Source of the DNA: Oligoflexus sp.
Lineage (GTDB): Bacteria; Bdellovibrionota_B; Oligoflexia; Oligoflexales; Oligoflexaceae
DNA length: 30,417 bases
Direction of reading: 5' to 3'
NCBI GenBank assembly: GCA_041736305.1
Contig: JBGSTX010000081.1
Coordinates: forward strand, 1 to 30,417
Positions 12,001-18,000 of the stretch are shown piece after piece. The stretch's first letter is position 1, and each line of letters opens with the position of its first letter. A program made the position numbers.

Positions 12001-15000
12001 AAGTGGGCAAGCGATTGGCTCTTATCACCGGCGCCTCAGCTGGAATTGGCGCAGAATTGGCTAAGCAAATGGCAGAGCGCGGCTACGATCTCGCTCTTAT
12101 AGCTCGTCGCCGACCGCTACTCGAGGAATTGGCCGAAACGCTGAAGCCGACAGGGGTCCGCGTCGGTATTTATCCCGCTGATGTAGTCAATGCTGACGAT
12201 ATCAAAGCGGCCATTGACGCTGTTGAAAAAGAGATGGGGCCTATTGATATCTGCGTAGCGAACGCCGGTGTCGCTATGGATATGTCTGTCCGCAAGTTTG
12301 ATGTGAAAAAGGCTAGGGAGGTTTACGACGTCAACGTTATCGGTCTCATGCAAACTATTGCGGCCGTACTACCCCATATGATCGAGCGCAGGACCGGAGA
12401 GATCGTCGGTGTTTCGAGCCTAGCTTCCTATTTGACAGCTCCCCGTGTCTATCCCTACTGCGCAAGCAAGGCCGCTGTTTCGGCCCACTTGGAAGGACTC
12501 CGCGTTGAGCTCATGTCCTATGGCATCAAGGTCACTACCGTGTGTCCGGGTTTTATCAAGACTCCGATGACAGATGGAGCGAAGCTAAAAATGCCCTTCA
12601 TCATGGAACTCGATGAAGCCGTTCGTTACATGCTCGACAAGCTCGAAAAAGGGCGCGATCAGGTGATCAACTACCCCTGGAGTCTCTACACGATCATCAG
12701 AGGCCTGAACCTCTTACCGCTTAGTCTGAAACGCCAGCTCTTCGCTAGGGGAACTGCCCGCGGGCCGTCCCATAGCACTCGGTAATTCTACTCTGACGGA
12801 CAAATGGCGATCGAAGCTCGGACAGCTGAGCTTCTCCTCCCTGGATCTGCGATCAAATGCTATTGCTGGATTTCCATTTGCCGTAGCTGTTTTCAAGCCA
12901 CTAAAATCTATTTTACTCAATCAGGTACTAACGCCCTTTGAGCTAAGGTATTTTGCCATATCGGCGAGTTTTACTCCGTTTGGACCCACATTGAACGCGC
13001 TTACAATCTCGTCCAAGCGCTGCTGGGGCACAAGCAGATTTTTATGACCGCTGACCTATTTGGCAATTTGAAGGGCGGCGGATGTGGAGTATTTGTCGCC
13101 ATATGGGTTCTAACCGAGAGACTTTTCAACAAACTCCATTAGCCTCTTTACAGCAATTTCAAAGGTTCACCCTTGGAGAGTGAAGTGGACCCTAACTCGC
13201 GCACAGGGCGAGTTTATCATTTTTACAGACCAGCTGTGACTTCTGAGGATGCAACAAGCACAAAAACGACACCGTCATCGGCCTTATAATTTGCAATGTA
13301 TTCAGTAGCCTTTTTCTTTGATCTTACGCAGTAAACCTTAAAATCTTCAAGCGGACCCTCCCGATTTATATACCAGCTGTCATATGTACTTTCGTAGGAC
13401 TTCTTTTCTTTGTTGAATCGCATGACATCGCCGCCCAAAAAAGCAAAGCTATTAGCTGACGGGCTATCCAGAAAGCCTAACACATCTTCTTTTTTCCAGG
13501 CAAAAATACCACTTTCTGCGTTAACAACTAATTTCTTCAAAAGGAAGTCTTCAGGAAAATTCTTGTTCATTTCTACCTCATTGGCTCAAATTTACGATGA
13601 TTAATTGAGCCATTGGGCTCAATTATCCATTCAAAATTGCCTTTCCTGCCCAGATACTCGCCTTCCAGTTCAATTCTGGTCCTTTTGATACCATCACCTC
13701 CTGTTATTTCGGTCTTCTTTCCTAGGCCTGCAAAATTGTCAACCTCACCTGGAAATCCATGAAATTGATCTGCTTGCATCTGGGCTCTAACTTTATCGGT
13801 ATACTTTTTATCAGTTAACGGATTGTGCTTGAATCTATCGGCATCCAATTTCCTTAGATCAATGCCGTTATTCTTCGCAGAGTCCAGAATCTTCTCAGCT
13901 CGCTTAGTTATTCCGAGCATTGAAGAAGCTTCTTCAGACCTCCCTACACTCTTCGACAGAATGCGGCTAATTTTACCGGCTTTTCCAGCGACGGCAAGCT
14001 TGCTACCCACCCCAGCGGTAAAAACTCCAAAGACGGCCATACTCCTCTCAAAATTTGTGAGCTTTCGTCCATCTACCAATCCATAACCAGACGTGGCTTC
14101 ATAGATATCCTTCCCCCAGCCAACGACAGGGGTAACAGAGATAGCAATGTCAGCAGCCGCCATACCAAATTCAAAGAGCTGACTACCCTCTCGAAAATTG
14201 CCGGCTCTGAAACTTGCTTCAGATTCGTCAATCGCGTTATCCGAGACAGAAATGAGCTTTTTCCTAGCCGTATAATCTCGATGGGATCGGTATGCTTCGA
14301 CTTTGCTTGCCGCATAGTCGAGATATCTGCGACCCTGATCTATAATGGCTTTCTCGGCGTATATGCTCTCGTTGTTCCGGTCGTTGCCCGGTTCAAAGGC
14401 CTCATCCCTTACTTCCGGCACCTGTGCTAAGATCGAGCGAACCTGCTCATTATAAGTGCTTCTGAATTTTTCGAGATTCTGAATCAGATTGTCGCCATCT
14501 GCTGCTGCCACCGAGTTTTGCAAAGATGCTAAAGATGCTTGGAGAGTCTCGCGATTGGCGTCAATAGATCGCCTATATACTTCGGCCTGCGCCCATAAAT
14601 CCTTTGCTTGCGACAGCAGCTTTTTGGCTTCTCGGGCTTTTCTTCGCCTCTCAGCATTTTTTCCATTTATCTCATCACGCAGCTTGCCCCAGGCCTTCGA
14701 AGTTTCTTTACCCAAAGAAGTAAGGACATCCCCTATTGCAGCGCCACTGGAATCTTCTCCTCCACCAGCAGTTGCCGCTTCGCCTGAGCTGGATCCACTA
14801 GAGGCACTCTCTTCGCAGTCACCGATACAACCAGTTTCAACATCAGAGCCCGATCCAATGGAACTACCCGTAGCGGTACTTGGATTGGCACCTGGACTGC
14901 TACCCGGAGGCTGATCGAAGCATTCCAGCGGCACATTGAACCCTTTGCAAGGGTCGGGACGATCGGTAATCGTAGCTTCAATATAGTAGTTTTCACCTCG

Positions 15001-18000
15001 CTTATACTTCGCCGAATCATCCTGATAACGGCTGCCGCATGAAAACAACAAAAAGTTCCACAGTACGAGCAGTGAAAATTTTAACTTATTCATATCTTCA
15101 CCATGCAATTTTTGGTGGCGTTCATGTAAAGACCTTCAACGGATCGGTAAGATTCAACTGTTTGAACTCGTTCCGCACGCCGAATATAGTTCTGCAGGCG
15201 GGCAACACACGCCGGCGTGTATTTTTCAGCGATATCAAGGCGACGAGATGCCAACATCTTTTGAGAGCTTAGGAAACCCTTCCAACCCTTGGCTTCGACT
15301 CGATCTACTTTAGACTTAAGATTGTTGATTACAGAATCCAGTCGTTCTAAGTAGGGTTTGCCGACATCAGTATAGGAGCCGCTCACTAGTCTTATTCTAT
15401 CCCTAAAATCTTTTGCCGCGATGAGATCAGCAGCATACAGGCGGCGAGATGATTCGAATTGAAGGTAGGTGGTCTCAAGGTGGTTGCGATCTCGGTCCTC
15501 ACTGATCGAAGTAAACCAGAGCTCAAAAGAAGTTGAAAGCCTATGGACGTGAATTATCGCTGCTATTTTGCCGCTAAGGCCAGATAGGTCGCGTTTCAGA
15601 GAGAGGCGATAAGCATCTTCCAAATCGGAACGTACAGCTGCATAGGCAAATTTTATAAGGTTTTCTCGCTTGCTACGGGCGCTCTGAACCATCGCGTGGA
15701 TCTTATCAACATCGGCGATAAATTCCTGAACTGATGCTTGGACTCGTGCTGCCACGATATTGGTGCGGGCCATTTCACAATCTGGGCCAGCTAGCCAGAG
15801 AGCTTCAGCTTTGGAAGCTTCGAAAGATTTTAGGAGATCGTCCCGCGCTTGTTCTATGAAGGATAGGAGAGCATATTCGCGAGTGCTAAGTGATCGGAGG
15901 AGATCGATGCCTGTGTGATAACCTCGATCAATACTGGCAATTTGGTCCCTAATCTTTTGGCGATCGGCAGAAGGGTTGGGGGAAGAATCTTTTACAAACT
16001 TCTCAATGGCCTGCAGGGACTTGTAATAATCAAGTTCAAGGGCTCGAAAGTTTCGCCACACATTATAGTCGACAGCACCACTATAGGATCTGCCCGCGGC
16101 CAAGGCACTTACCAACAGTGGAGTAGGGCTTTCTTGGGGGCGAAATTTTCGTAAGAGATCTGATGTAGTAGCTGTGAGCAAATTTGCACGGGTTAAGCAC
16201 TGGTCAATTCTTTTTATTTTTGGAATGCATTGGCTTCTGAGGTTTTCCAAGCTTGCTCTGACGATAGCCAGATTGTTGCCGTCGGGCTTTGGGACGATAC
16301 ACTCTTTTAATTCTTGGCCTATGGCAAGGCCCGTATTCAGGAATAAAAGAAAAAAGATGAAAAAAGCACGCATGCAGGGTTCCTATTCTCGTGAAGATCA
16401 ATTTTAACTATTCAGCGACTCTGGAGATTTCTTCTTTGAGTCTGCTCAGTTTTTCTCTAGCCTTAGGGTTTTGCCTTGCGACCTGATCGTTCAAAAGGAG
16501 CCCAATTTCTTCTTCCTTATTTTGAAACCAACTCAATAAACTATCGTGGGAAATCTTTAGGCTACAGTTCTGCTTAAAGCGTTTGAAACGTCCTTCGGCT
16601 ATATTTGCAGGGTTTTGGAGCGAGGAGAGAGTTGTTCGATTGAAAGCCTCACAATCGAGGCGCTCAAGAGTCACCTTAACTTGTACTTCACTCATATTTA
16701 TATTTTGACAGGAGACCTGCACATCTGACCTTTCATATCCAAAGATCAAGAAAAATTTCTCATTCAAGTCAATGGCGACTTGCTCGTAAAGTGGATCAGC
16801 ACTGTACTTGTCAATCAGGCACGCAAGCGCCTTTTCGTTTCTTAGGCGAGAAAAAAGTTCACCCTGGCGGATTGGTAAAACGCTAGCGTAGGTATCCAGG
16901 CTCGATTTGGTCTCGTAAATATAGGCCTCAACCTGCTCGGGAGTCTTATAGAAACTACAGCTTTTATACTGCGCATTACCAAATTCTGGATGTTGGCATT
17001 CTCGGTAGAGTTCAACGCCATGTTGTGGATGCCTGCAAGCCTGATAAGCAATCACACCAAAATCTGGATGCTCACAAGACTTTGGTTCTTGACCTACACA
17101 TGTGCGGTGTATTCTTCCACCAGGCCCGGTAATAAGTTCGCCATTTCTACCTTTGGGCTGGACCATTTTGCAAGCCGTACCACAGCGATTTGCGTCAGCA
17201 CGTACATTGAATCTTGCTGGAGGACAGACAGGACTCTCTTTACTGAAATAGATATCGGCTCCGCAGATTGGATCGCGCCTGGCTTGATAATTCTCGACTC
17301 CACATAATTGATGCCTTGCGGTCTGTAGTTCGAAGCTCATGGCAGCTTCAGACAAGATGCAAAGAATTATCGACATGATCTGGAAAAAGGTTCTCATCGG
17401 ATAGGCTCTCCTCAAGCATCGAATAGAACTTAGAGTATCGTTAAGCGGCGTATACGTTTGAGGAAAGCCTTAGTCAACAAGGATTTGGTCATTTATACGC
17501 GCCTAAGAAAAAATTTACTTTGCGTGTGAGCTGGGGGAGTATGATGTGGACTTGTCTTGCGAAAATAATGCTTAAAAGTCTGCTGCCTTTAACTTATGTT
17601 TCTTTGTGATGCACGGACTGAGATTGCTGTGTTTTCCTTGCAAAGCTATTCCAAATAGTCAGGCCGACGGAATCAGCCCTTTATTTGCAGGCCCGCCAAG
17701 CAAGCTGAGCTTATCGGTTTTTGTGAGAAGGATCGGATTGGGCGTAGGAGAGACCAACCTTCGAGATCCCGATTGGCAGGAGGATCAAGTGTGCGGACAC
17801 CGTGGGCATCAAAATTTTCGCAGCCTGCTAAGGAGACAGGCCTTCAATAAAAGGGGCCTAATTCTGTACGACAAGGCTGCTGAGGCAGAACTTGGACATC
17901 GTTACAGGCCAGCTTGACGGAAAAATCCTTGGGATCGTCTCCGTCCTGAAGCCAGGCTATATCGACAAGTTCACCGCTGAAGCAGCCTTTTTTGTCGAAA

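Follow-up and report, generated by a model that had tools for sequence, protein, structure and literature searches.

How does a lipid-anchored toxin with an exchangeable C-terminus reach other cells, and do two secreted proteins encoded beside it take part in its delivery? This question is raised by a four-gene cassette of Oligoflexus sp. (assembly GCA_041736305.1), a bacterium whose GTDB genus is that of Oligoflexus tunisiensis. The window analysed, 30,417 nucleotides of contig JBGSTX010000081.1 (C83), carries at positions 13223-17397 an accessory gene A, a second accessory gene B, a toxin gene and an immunity gene, all on the minus strand (Table 1). Open reading frames and Pfam matches to PT-TG and Imm40 agree with the place that the first-pass annotation had given to these four genes. 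The stop codon of B and the ATG of the toxin gene overlap in an ATGA at 15090-15093, as read directly from the sequence, and the immunity gene starts 2 nt past the toxin stop codon. The G+C content of the cassette (0.43-0.50) is below that of its flanks (0.52-0.57), and no match to Phage_integrase was found on this contig or on C128, the contig with a paralogous cassette.

Table 1. Coordinates of the cassette genes and of the parts of the toxin within the window.
Feature	Position	Strand	Description
Gene A	16408..17397	-	329 aa from ATG, 335 aa from upstream TTG; secreted, Cys-rich accessory
Gene B	15090..16373	-	427 aa; secreted all-helical accessory
Toxin gene	13573..15093	-	Lipoprotein pre-toxin; 506 aa from ATG, 511 aa from TTG
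Lipoprotein signal peptide	15037..15093	-	MNKLKFSLLVLWNFLLFS followed by C; direct sequence reading
PT-TG pre-toxin domain	13972..14157	-	Residues 318-379 of the 511-aa frame; Pfam 3.7e-10
Variable C-terminal toxin domain	13576..13866	-	About 97 aa; similarity to the paralogue stops here
Immunity gene	13223..13570	-	115 aa; Imm40 family

Based on alignment with the C128 paralogue and 15 homologues, the toxin consists of a signal sequence with a lipobox, a Gly/Ser/Pro-rich linker, a helical region, PT-TG, a junction helix and a variable C-terminal domain, in that order. Its N-terminus (MNKLKFSLL...) is without a twin arginine and ends in the lipobox, LLFS followed by Cys, 19 residues from the ATG; a lipobox regular expression gave a clear match in 12 of the 17 members of the toxin family. 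The PT-TG domain (PF14449), placed identically by genome search, scores 40.1 bits against a Pfam gathering cut-off of 23.5. It has T-S-G as its TG motif and lies just ahead of the toxin module on the N-terminal side, some 35 residues short of the break point. The only other Pfam match was a sub-threshold coiled coil, and none of the trafficking domains of T6SS-, T7SS- or CDI-delivered toxins (VgrG/PAAR/Rhs, LXG/WXG or haemagglutinin repeats) was recognised by Pfam. The variable domain, or warhead, has NHRKFEPMR as its last residues, with an HxxF motif among them; it matched no Pfam family at E values up to 10, and its best PDB sequence match had an E value of 0.22. As the warhead belongs to no recognised family, its toxicity is assumed from its context. 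The immunity gene matches Imm40 (1.3e-8, 35.7 bits against a cut-off of 25), and its translation shows no signal peptide; a cytoplasmic Imm40 protein would imply a warhead active in the target bacterium's cytoplasm. Imm40 is linked to Ntox19 in PMC3482391, and the warhead, judged by this partner, is possibly an Ntox19-like RNase.

Four PT-TG matches were found in the genome. The first-pass annotation had described the C128 cassette as a paralogue with a different immunity gene, and this proved real: the A proteins are 73% and the B proteins 65% identical, and the toxins 57% over 439 aligned residues, with similarity stopping near residues 415-431 and unrelated C-termini beyond. The C128 toxin has its own PT-TG domain (2.2e-9), and the downstream gene encodes 92 aa of no Pfam family, compared with Imm40 on C83. 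The PrimPol and tRNA neighbours noted earlier were also recovered, as PrimPol/DUF3987 and tRNA-Ile flank the C128 copy. A second cassette type had been proposed, in which a trypsin-like protein is paired with a PT-TG lipoprotein; the toxin domains were as described on both C56 and C294, but the trypsin-like partner is present on C56 only. That cassette comprises the trypsin-like protein (2.5e-6), a lipoprotein whose PT-TG match (3.3e-4) is below the cut-off, and Imm8 (5.6e-28), while C294 encodes a lipoprotein with PT-TG (1.9e-4) and Ribonuclease (4.4e-14) domains beside a Barstar gene (2.3e-22) absent from the first-pass annotation. The toxins of C56 and C294 share 90% identity over 611 aligned residues, with divergence setting in past about residue 567. 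A phmmer search with the C56 trypsin-like protein, run against every ORF of the fetched loci, C294 included, found only itself.

Further diversity was observed in the toxin homologues from other genomes. The Pfam scan detected PT-TG in 10 of the 15, and seven carry a toxin domain above cut-off (Col-Pyo_DNase, EndoU, ADPrib_exo_Tox/ART, CdiA_C, Peptidase_C39, LHH or TNT), with a Cytotoxic domain just under the cut-off in one more. Five of the 15 downstream genes match immunity families above cut-off, namely ADP_ribosyl_GH, Imm35, Barstar, SUKH_5 and Imm45. These seven toxin domains, the varied immunity genes and the unrelated C-termini of the paralogues support the earlier reading of the locus as a polymorphic toxin. 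A constant N-terminal region joined to unrelated C-termini and a changing downstream immunity gene, the features by which polymorphic toxin-immunity systems are recognised (PMC3482391), were both found.

Mantel comparisons of 16 cassettes gave r = 0.75 for A and B, 0.92 for B and the toxin N-region and 0.74 for A and the toxin N-region, values reached in none of 2000 permutations, though such co-divergence is equally expected from plain operon co-inheritance. The corresponding value was -0.03 for the toxin N-region and C-terminus and 0.10 for B and the immunity gene. By this measure A, B and the toxin N-region diverge together, and the warhead and immunity gene are shuffled among cassettes; A and B are part of the constant portion of the system. 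Where cassettes coexist in one genome (G074, G073 and G066), all three constant parts differ equally (21-33% identity), so that every toxin comes with an A and a B of its own and no single common machine serves them all.

The accessory genes had been reported from 19 of 131 genomes. Their presence beyond the source organism was confirmed, and the count is higher, B being found in 22 of the 131 genomes of the phylum with a three-sequence profile and in 34 with a 59-sequence profile; 32 of these 34 also have a match to A. The claim that the accessories travel with the toxin in a congener can be widened considerably. In every one of the 16 loci retrieved around B homologues, A, B and a toxin-like ORF occurred together, a count in which the contig of L021 stops before the toxin gene, L023 has A downstream and the B of L032 was detected by genome search only. 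Five of the 16 A proteins lay outside the set used to build the A profile and still matched it (6e-11 to 1.7e-6). In L037 and L038, which belong to one group of relatives, A and B are divergently transcribed, and strict operon coupling is therefore not universal.

As first proposed, neither accessory belongs to a known family: no Pfam, NCBIfam, PHROG or PDB entry was matched by A or by B. A signal peptide is visible in each, and together with the conserved cysteines this fits an oxidising, extracytoplasmic location. In A the signal peptide is followed by two repeat blocks (residues ~25-149) and a helical domain (153-328); the repeats are 13-residue (C/F/H)G-V-x-x-Y units, with period and Cys spacing measured, and are modelled as beta-hairpins (AlphaFold pLDDT 88.6). 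The N-terminal Cys-repeat part also occurs in other large proteins distant from toxin genes, so this module is not specific to toxin delivery. Among 13 A homologues scanned, the one of locus L020 has two ricin-type lectin domains (3.9e-13 and 8.7e-11), and lectin domains were absent from the other 12 and from the A of the window. B is modelled with high confidence (pLDDT 92.3), with helices at 138-195 and 205-291. C59, C199, C389 and C423 are invariant in 59 sequences, and C25 and C49 nearly so (at least 90% of 12 sequences). Relatives of B numbered 114 among 1.84 billion cluster representatives. Its only Pfam match was sub-threshold (V-ATPase_G_2 at 16.6 bits, where the cut-off is 28; E 0.013).

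Taken together, the cassette is probably a polymorphic toxin-immunity operon specific to a lineage within Oligoflexia, with two dedicated escort or targeting proteins and a delivery route that we infer. The toxin would be made as a Sec-exported, lipid-anchored pre-toxin, in which the lipobox Cys is followed by a flexible linker, the helical escort part, PT-TG with its hydrophobic flanks and the exchangeable warhead, and the Imm40 protein would guard the producer from within its cytoplasm. B, coupled to the toxin in translation, may serve as a scaffold or chaperone, a long helical protein stapled by disulfides. A may be an outward-facing target binder, a Cys-repeat beta-hairpin rod with a helical domain that in one homologue is lectin-tipped. 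Both could bind the toxin at its N-terminal region, either inside the periplasm or at the outer membrane, and give a delivery complex held by the lipid anchor. Once cells touch or vesicles are passed on, PT-TG might help the warhead through the target membranes. The analysis itself establishes the gene order, the family memberships, the polymorphism and co-divergence, the export signals and the predicted folds; from these we infer a complex, its exposure at the surface, what A and B do, how the toxin is delivered and that it is toxic. No TssC, the sheath gene of T6SS, was detected in this genome (92.7% complete).

The SitB-SitA-SitI systems of myxobacteria come close in outline. They share with the cassette a lipobox toxin whose N-terminal escort region is specific to the family and whose nuclease-type warhead can be exchanged, a downstream immunity gene, an accessory gene with a type I signal that overlaps the toxin gene from upstream, and mobile-element genes nearby (PMC5562445, PMC8546572). 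The toxin could accordingly be an outer-membrane lipoprotein passed to kin by outer membrane fusion, as in myxobacterial exchange, with A and B acting like SitB to stabilise or load it and making no contact with the target. This seems unlikely, given that relatives of SitA were found by the HMMER searches of its authors only in Myxococcales with traAB (PMC5562445), and the host here is of the Oligoflexus type. There are two accessory genes in the present system, and B is confidently modelled as all-helical, in contrast to the beta-barrel predicted for SitB (PMC5562445). The toxin here has PT-TG, a word absent from the main text of PMC5562445. The lectins on one A homologue would also suit binding to a foreign surface better than fusion of kin membranes. 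MYXO-CTERM (TIGR03901) was blank in this genome and equally in all 14 control genomes, and hence carries no weight.

A and B might instead serve only within the producer, as maturation or release factors, for instance periplasmic chaperones holding the hydrophobic PT-TG region soluble or factors that set the toxin free, and not be delivered at all. In favour of this, hydropathy shows PT-TG of the window toxin flanked by two moderately hydrophobic 19-residue stretches; at least one hydrophobic stretch of this length lies beside the PT-TG core in 13 of 17 homologues and at least two in 7. The translational coupling of B and toxin suits a chaperone needed in stoichiometric amounts, and the co-divergence suits a cognate one. 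The lectin-bearing A homologue is nevertheless hard to reconcile with a purely periplasmic role, and two large disulfide-rich proteins appear excessive for chaperoning. We consider a role confined to the producer quite unlikely, while noting that the present data do not separate it cleanly from the escort and targeting roles preferred here.

Three exported, partly helical proteins from one operon could also suggest that A and B join the toxin's helical N-region in a multi-component alpha-helical pore that admits the warhead, like ClyA or the tripartite AhlABC. The B model does align with the protomer of the ClyA pore (6mrt; Z 11.1, rmsd 6.3 over 211 residues) and with AhlB (6grj; Z 8.4, rmsd 3.5 over 167 residues), but these values are in the range of unrelated helical bundles, and designed bundles (12.6) and spectrin (12.2) score higher. 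Foldseek returned nothing for B at E <= 0.001, inspection of its sequence by eye revealed no long hydrophobic segment, and profile comparison found A, B and the toxin unrelated to one another; a pore is very improbable. The models of A and B are confident, and the structural searches, having given generic helical matches and no specific one, are silent on the function of either protein.

Predators are included in the phylum Bdellovibrionota, and the TNT, ADP-ribosyltransferase and lectin domains seen among the homologues are also known from toxins acting on eukaryotes, so that the toxins might be aimed at eukaryotes or prey, the immunity genes only guarding the producer against leakage. This is scarcely credible, as the warheads and immunity proteins concerned (colicin DNase, EndoU, LHH with SUKH, barnase-type with Barstar, Imm40, Imm45) are catalogued for interbacterial toxins (PMC3482391) and several divergent cassettes per genome are the usual pattern of kin competition.

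The interbacterial operon with dedicated escort proteins favoured here may be compared with three further groups. The groups that Becerra Soto et al. (2026; Pandoomain, PMC13483458) call 'PT-TG toxin' and 'PT-TG singleton' likewise combine PT-TG with a variable toxin domain in diderms and have no recognised trafficking domain; such proteins are spread over diderm phyla, with secretion systems described there as unknown. The words 'lipoprotein', 'accessory' and 'Bdellovibrio' are absent from the main text of that paper, to which the lipobox, the two accessory genes and the conservation of A and B are additions. In MafA-MafB-MafI of Neisseria, a toxin with a lineage-restricted N-terminal domain and polymorphic C-termini is also preceded by a non-polymorphic accessory, and one partner is lipid-anchored; the Maf lipoprotein is, however, the accessory MafA and not the toxin, the reverse of the arrangement here (PMC3482391). 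Nor does the window toxin have a MafB-type N-terminal domain, as its Pfam matches indicate.

The umbrella particles of Streptomyces (UmbA/UmbB/UmbC) resemble the cassette in placing a helical polymorphic toxin beside two kinds of dedicated secreted partners; one Umb partner has target-choosing lectins, domains seen here in a single A homologue, and UmbA's trypsin-like domain recalls the partner in the second cassette type (PMC11062931). Umb toxins differ in having a Tat signal and ALF repeats, beside a coiled-coil stalk, and in their soluble release by monoderms (PMC11062931), compared with the lipoprotein signal and PT-TG found here; the Tat signal is absent from the present toxin, and Pfam, with no search aimed at ALF repeats by a model of their own, reported PT-TG and no ALF repeats. 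A and B, moreover, bear no sequence relation to Pfam families, and lectins are confined to one of the 13 A homologues, which is not that of the window.

It is tentatively suggested, as a possibility short of probable, that A, B and the lipoprotein pre-toxin form a self-contained lipid-anchored particle carried by the outer membrane or by vesicles, with A as its exchangeable target-recognition subunit. If so, this would be a form of diderm delivery that needs no dedicated secretion machine and a counterpart of the Streptomyces umbrella particles, and it would supply the missing account of the exit of PT-TG toxins from diderm cells and of their entry into others. The operon may reveal how lipid-anchored toxins with swappable warheads are delivered by outer-membrane bacteria.

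The four minus-strand genes of the cassette, in which two accessory genes (A and B) precede the toxin and immunity genes, are tightly packed and lie where the first-pass annotation had placed a four-gene unit. The stop codon of B overlaps the ATG of the toxin gene (ATGA), a lipobox (LLFS↓C) follows 19 residues past that ATG, and 2 nt separate the toxin stop codon from the start of the immunity gene. Searches against Pfam identified a PT-TG domain in the toxin (3.7e-10; 40.1 bits, with a cut-off of 23.5) and Imm40 in the 115-aa gene (1.3e-8), and gave no match for A and a sub-threshold match only for B. 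The G+C content of the cassette is 0.43-0.50, compared with 0.52-0.57 in its flanks. Promoter-like and terminator-like sites at the cassette were no more frequent than expected by chance, and a possible gene remnant at 12920-13040 was full of stops in the one frame read.

Genes of the PT-TG lipoprotein toxin cassette in the window
Gene	Position	Strand	Product
Gene A	16408-17397	minus	329 aa ORF
Gene B	15090-16373	minus	427 aa ORF
Lipoprotein toxin gene	13573-15093	minus	506 aa from ATG
Immunity gene (Imm40)	13223-13570	minus	115 aa ORF

Several other genes of the window were recorded. A TnpB/Cas12f-like gene (10836-11930, plus strand; Cas12f1-like_TNB 3.6e-19, OrfB_IS605 1.6e-5 and below the Pfam cut-off) is situated about 1.3 kb from the immunity end of the cassette, with an SDR gene in between. 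On the minus strand, 23308-28845 encodes an 1845-aa hybrid histidine kinase with 12 consecutive HAMP domains (Pfam HAMP 4.5e-122, 12 stretches), ahead of GAF, HisKA, HATPase and receiver domains. Also on this strand are a 459-aa putative lipoprotein (2167-3546) with a marginal N-terminal match to the collagen triple helix (Pfam Collagen 3.4e-6, slightly under the cut-off) and a 340-aa secreted protein (54-1076) with 18 cysteines and a coiled-coil match below the Pfam cut-off (TPR_MLP1_2, E 2e-7); the weak match of the latter to the toxin-family profile (1.9e-5) is probably due to its helical composition.

After the lipobox, the toxin consists of a Gly/Ser/Pro-rich linker, a helical region, PT-TG, a short junction helix resembling (E)xxIxDSAK, and a variable C-terminal toxin domain, or warhead. 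At least one moderately hydrophobic 19-residue stretch lies beside the PT-TG core in 13 of 17 homologues, and at least two in seven of them; these stretches are at most suggestive of a membrane-active hairpin in the PT-TG region. The warhead of the window toxin (about 97 aa) has no relative in Pfam or the PDB. The toxin domain listed for Imm40 in a published catalogue (PMC3482391) is Ntox19, predicted to be an RNase of the BECR fold and having HxxF at the end of its motif, and the window toxin terminates in NHRKFEPMR, which holds such a motif. Taken together, this association and the terminal motif offer a lead towards an Ntox19-like warhead. Since no signal peptide is visible in the translated Imm40 protein, the cytoplasm is the expected site of action of the warhead.

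The source assembly (5.0 Mb in 392 contigs, 92.7% complete) contains four PT-TG matches in all. A paralogous cassette had been proposed on a second contig, C128, and was found there: A is 73% and B 65% identical to the window copies, and the toxin (PT-TG 2.2e-9) is 57% identical to about residue 415 and unrelated beyond. The 92-aa gene 3' of this toxin has no Pfam family. The cassette is flanked by a PrimPol/DUF3987 gene and a tRNA-Ile, and neither contig gave an integrase match. Just past the PrimPol gene, a 129-aa ORF (C128:16972-17361, plus strand; 3973-4362 in fetched locus L003) contains DVDPRHGGD, to be compared with the N-terminal PrimPol motif IDIDPRHGGD; it looks like a duplicated PrimPol fragment, situated at the edge of the island bearing the second cassette.

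The remaining two PT-TG matches, on contigs C56 and C294, had been described as a second cassette type in which a trypsin-like protein is paired with a PT-TG lipoprotein ending in unrelated toxin domains. An alignment of 611 residues indeed shows the two lipoproteins to be 90% identical, and they part ways past about residue 567, with the junction helix again at the break point. An Imm8 gene follows the C56 toxin; the C294 toxin has a barnase-type Ribonuclease domain at its C-terminus, and the gene after it encodes Barstar. The upstream trypsin-like gene is present on C56 only, and apart from this correction the genes, the paralogue and the second type were as first reported. The trypsin-like protein on C56 (14369-16570, plus strand; 3370-5571 in L004) has 733 aa with long coiled-coil flanks and, judged by eye, appears to retain two motifs, AAHC and GMSGAP, that an active serine protease should have.

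The claim that the accessory proteins belong to no known family held as well. A and B are unmatched in Pfam, NCBIfam and PHROGs, gave nothing below E 0.02 against PDB profiles, and had no usable match in the ESM Atlas; profile comparison with hhalign found A, B and the toxin mutually unrelated. The model of A (pLDDT 88.6) shows a run of short beta-hairpins at residues 25-149 and a helical part at 153-328. In the hairpin region, repeats of strictly 13 residues, [C/F/H]G-V-x-x-Y, are arranged in two blocks, and a cysteine recurs every 13 residues. Foldseek returned no match to this model at E <= 0.001 in the PDB and none among viral models, and VIA-align gave generic helical matches, with the hairpin part barely covered by any alignment. 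In one homologue of A (L020, genome G074) the chain extends into two lectin domains of the ricin type, and two others carry unclassified C-terminal extensions.

In related genomes, other Cys-rich proteins of 438-716 aa, either secreted or lipoproteins, have the 13-residue cysteine repeat as their C-terminal part; they are encoded at L034:7146-8462, L035:7490-9457, L036:6310-7974 and L039:4598-10314 (three in tandem in L039). None of these genes adjoins a B or toxin gene, and their products match no informative Pfam family, apart from one single sub-threshold match. On its sequence pattern, the repeat defines a putative new domain.

B is modelled as an elongated, all-helical protein (pLDDT 92.3) with helices of 58 and 87 residues. 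Four of its cysteines are invariant in 59 sequences, and two more are conserved in at least 90% of 12 sequences. Foldseek found no PDB match to the B model at E <= 0.001. The VIA-align matches (a designed bundle, Z 12.6; spectrin, 12.2; ClyA, 11.1) are at the level reached by unrelated helical bundles and appear only generic. No A-B fusion was found among the collected relatives of B; two representatives of 562-569 aa (P0038 and P0067) have about 350 additional residues at the N-terminus, unrelated to A or the toxin.

A three-sequence profile of B retrieved 114 relatives at E <= 0.001, 55 of them at E <= 1e-10, from 1.84 billion cluster representatives, and detected B in 22 of the 131 genomes of the phylum set; a search for related loci with this profile found nothing. 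Word-index homologue searches gave three matches for B, eight for A and four for the toxin N-region. With a 59-sequence profile, B was detected in 34 of the 131 genomes, including 18 of 83 high-quality genomes, and in 19 of 55 genera. The A profile matched 58 of the 131 genomes, many of these matches covering only the N-terminal repeat part in other Cys-rich proteins remote from toxin genes. Almost all B-positive genomes (32 of 34) have an A match, the exceptions being G035, which is 77% complete, and G120, where the B match is weak.

Gene order was compared across 11 genomes, at 16 loci that surround homologues of B. A adjoins B in 11 loci by single-sequence phmmer, lying downstream in one of them (L023); in the remaining five, the ORF that occupies the place of A matches the A profile (6e-11 to 1.7e-6), which was built without these five ORFs. 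The ORF after B is toxin-like in 15 loci, and the remaining locus (L021) stops at a contig edge. In L032, B was missed by ORF picking and was placed by the profile search of genomes, and in three loci beyond these 16 (L040, L041 and L043) the order is kept as far as the contigs extend. In two more distant relatives, L037 and L038, A and B are divergently transcribed and the gene after B has a C-terminal EndoU nuclease domain (3.8e-6 and, below the cut-off, 0.0097, respectively). Two cassettes (L019 and L027) occur in Oligoflexus tunisiensis Shr3 (G073; NCBI lineage Bdellovibrionota, Oligoflexia), a cultured type strain of the same genus as the source. Judged from titles and the openings of abstracts, none of the papers found on Oligoflexus and toxins concerns such a system; nor did one emerge from a search for polymorphic toxin lipoproteins in Bdellovibrionota, whose sole match was on another subject.

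Among 15 toxin homologues scanned against Pfam together with their 15 downstream genes, PT-TG was recognized in ten. Seven have a known C-terminal toxin domain above the cut-off (Col-Pyo_DNase, EndoU, ADPrib_exo_Tox/ART, CdiA_C, Peptidase_C39, LHH and TNT), and one more has a Cytotoxic domain just under it. An immunity family was found above the cut-off in five of the downstream genes, each fitting its toxin as expected: ADP_ribosyl_GH is paired with ART, SUKH_5 with LHH and Imm45 with the colicin-E3-like Cytotoxic domain, the other two families being Imm35 and Barstar. Across 16 cassettes, A, B and the toxin N-region correlate strongly with one another in normalised distance (r = 0.74-0.92, reached in none of 2000 permutations), whereas the distances of the warhead and immunity gene show no correlation with these three (r = -0.14 to 0.10). 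The constant module thus consists of A, B and the toxin N-region, and the variable one of the warhead with its immunity gene. Co-inheritance alone would yield the same pattern, so the co-divergence is no proof that the parts bind one another. What the pattern shows is that each toxin retains its own A and B, with no single shared machine: cassettes of the same genome (G074, G073 and G066) differ equally strongly in A, B and the toxin N-region, at 21-33% identity. We class the cassette as a polymorphic toxin system whose constant module is new.

From the parts, their conservation and their polymorphism, which are observed, we infer binding, location and route as follows. The reading we consider probable is delivery of a lipid-anchored pre-toxin as a complex with A and B. 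The pre-toxin would be exported and anchored by its lipid; A and B would be co-exported and bind its constant N-region, and the resulting complex, situated on the outer membrane or on vesicles, would serve for delivery. A may face outward and recognise the target, with B as scaffold or chaperone; PT-TG would help the warhead across membranes, and Imm40 would protect the producer.

In layout, the closest known system is SitB-SitA-SitI of myxobacteria: there, too, the toxin has a lipobox, the accessory gene before it overlaps it and encodes a type I signal, and an immunity gene comes after the toxin. SitA-like transfer through membrane fusion is the strongest alternative, although distinctly less probable; SitA relatives were reported from Myxococcales with traAB only, and SitB was predicted to form a beta-barrel (PMC5562445; PMC8546572). 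That A and B are purely producer-side chaperones or release factors, a role that co-divergence with the toxin N-region would also fit, seems improbable beside the lectin-tipped homologue of A. A multi-component helical pore former, with ClyA among the generic matches of B, is very improbable, and a eukaryotic or prey target for these immunity-paired toxins more so still. The lectin-tipped homologue and the trypsin-like partner on C56 also recall the umbrella particles of Streptomyces, but the umbrella toxins (PMC11062931) have a Tat signal, absent from the window toxin, and ALF repeats, not found in it by the Pfam scan; the trypsin domains of UmbA are inactive, whereas the C56 protein appears to keep active-protease motifs. 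In MafA-MafB the lipid anchor is on the accessory protein, whereas in the cassette it is on the toxin.

Polymorphic toxins are well known, and to our knowledge every delivery route so far (CDI, T6SS, T7SS, outer membrane exchange and umbrella particles) has founded its own field. PT-TG was defined in Gram-positive toxins (PMC3113570). A 2026 survey lists 'PT-TG' and 'PT-TG toxin' architectures across diderm phyla and states that no secretion system is known for them; the word 'lipoprotein' is absent from its main text (PMC13483458). The cassette gives this diderm secretion question a concrete form: three constant genes, two of which are new families with confident, unmatched structure models, recurring in a lineage that has received little study (34 of 131 genomes). 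With it, SitA-like lipoprotein toxins extend beyond myxobacteria, and since there is a cultured strain with two cassettes, Oligoflexus tunisiensis Shr3, the system is open to bench testing.
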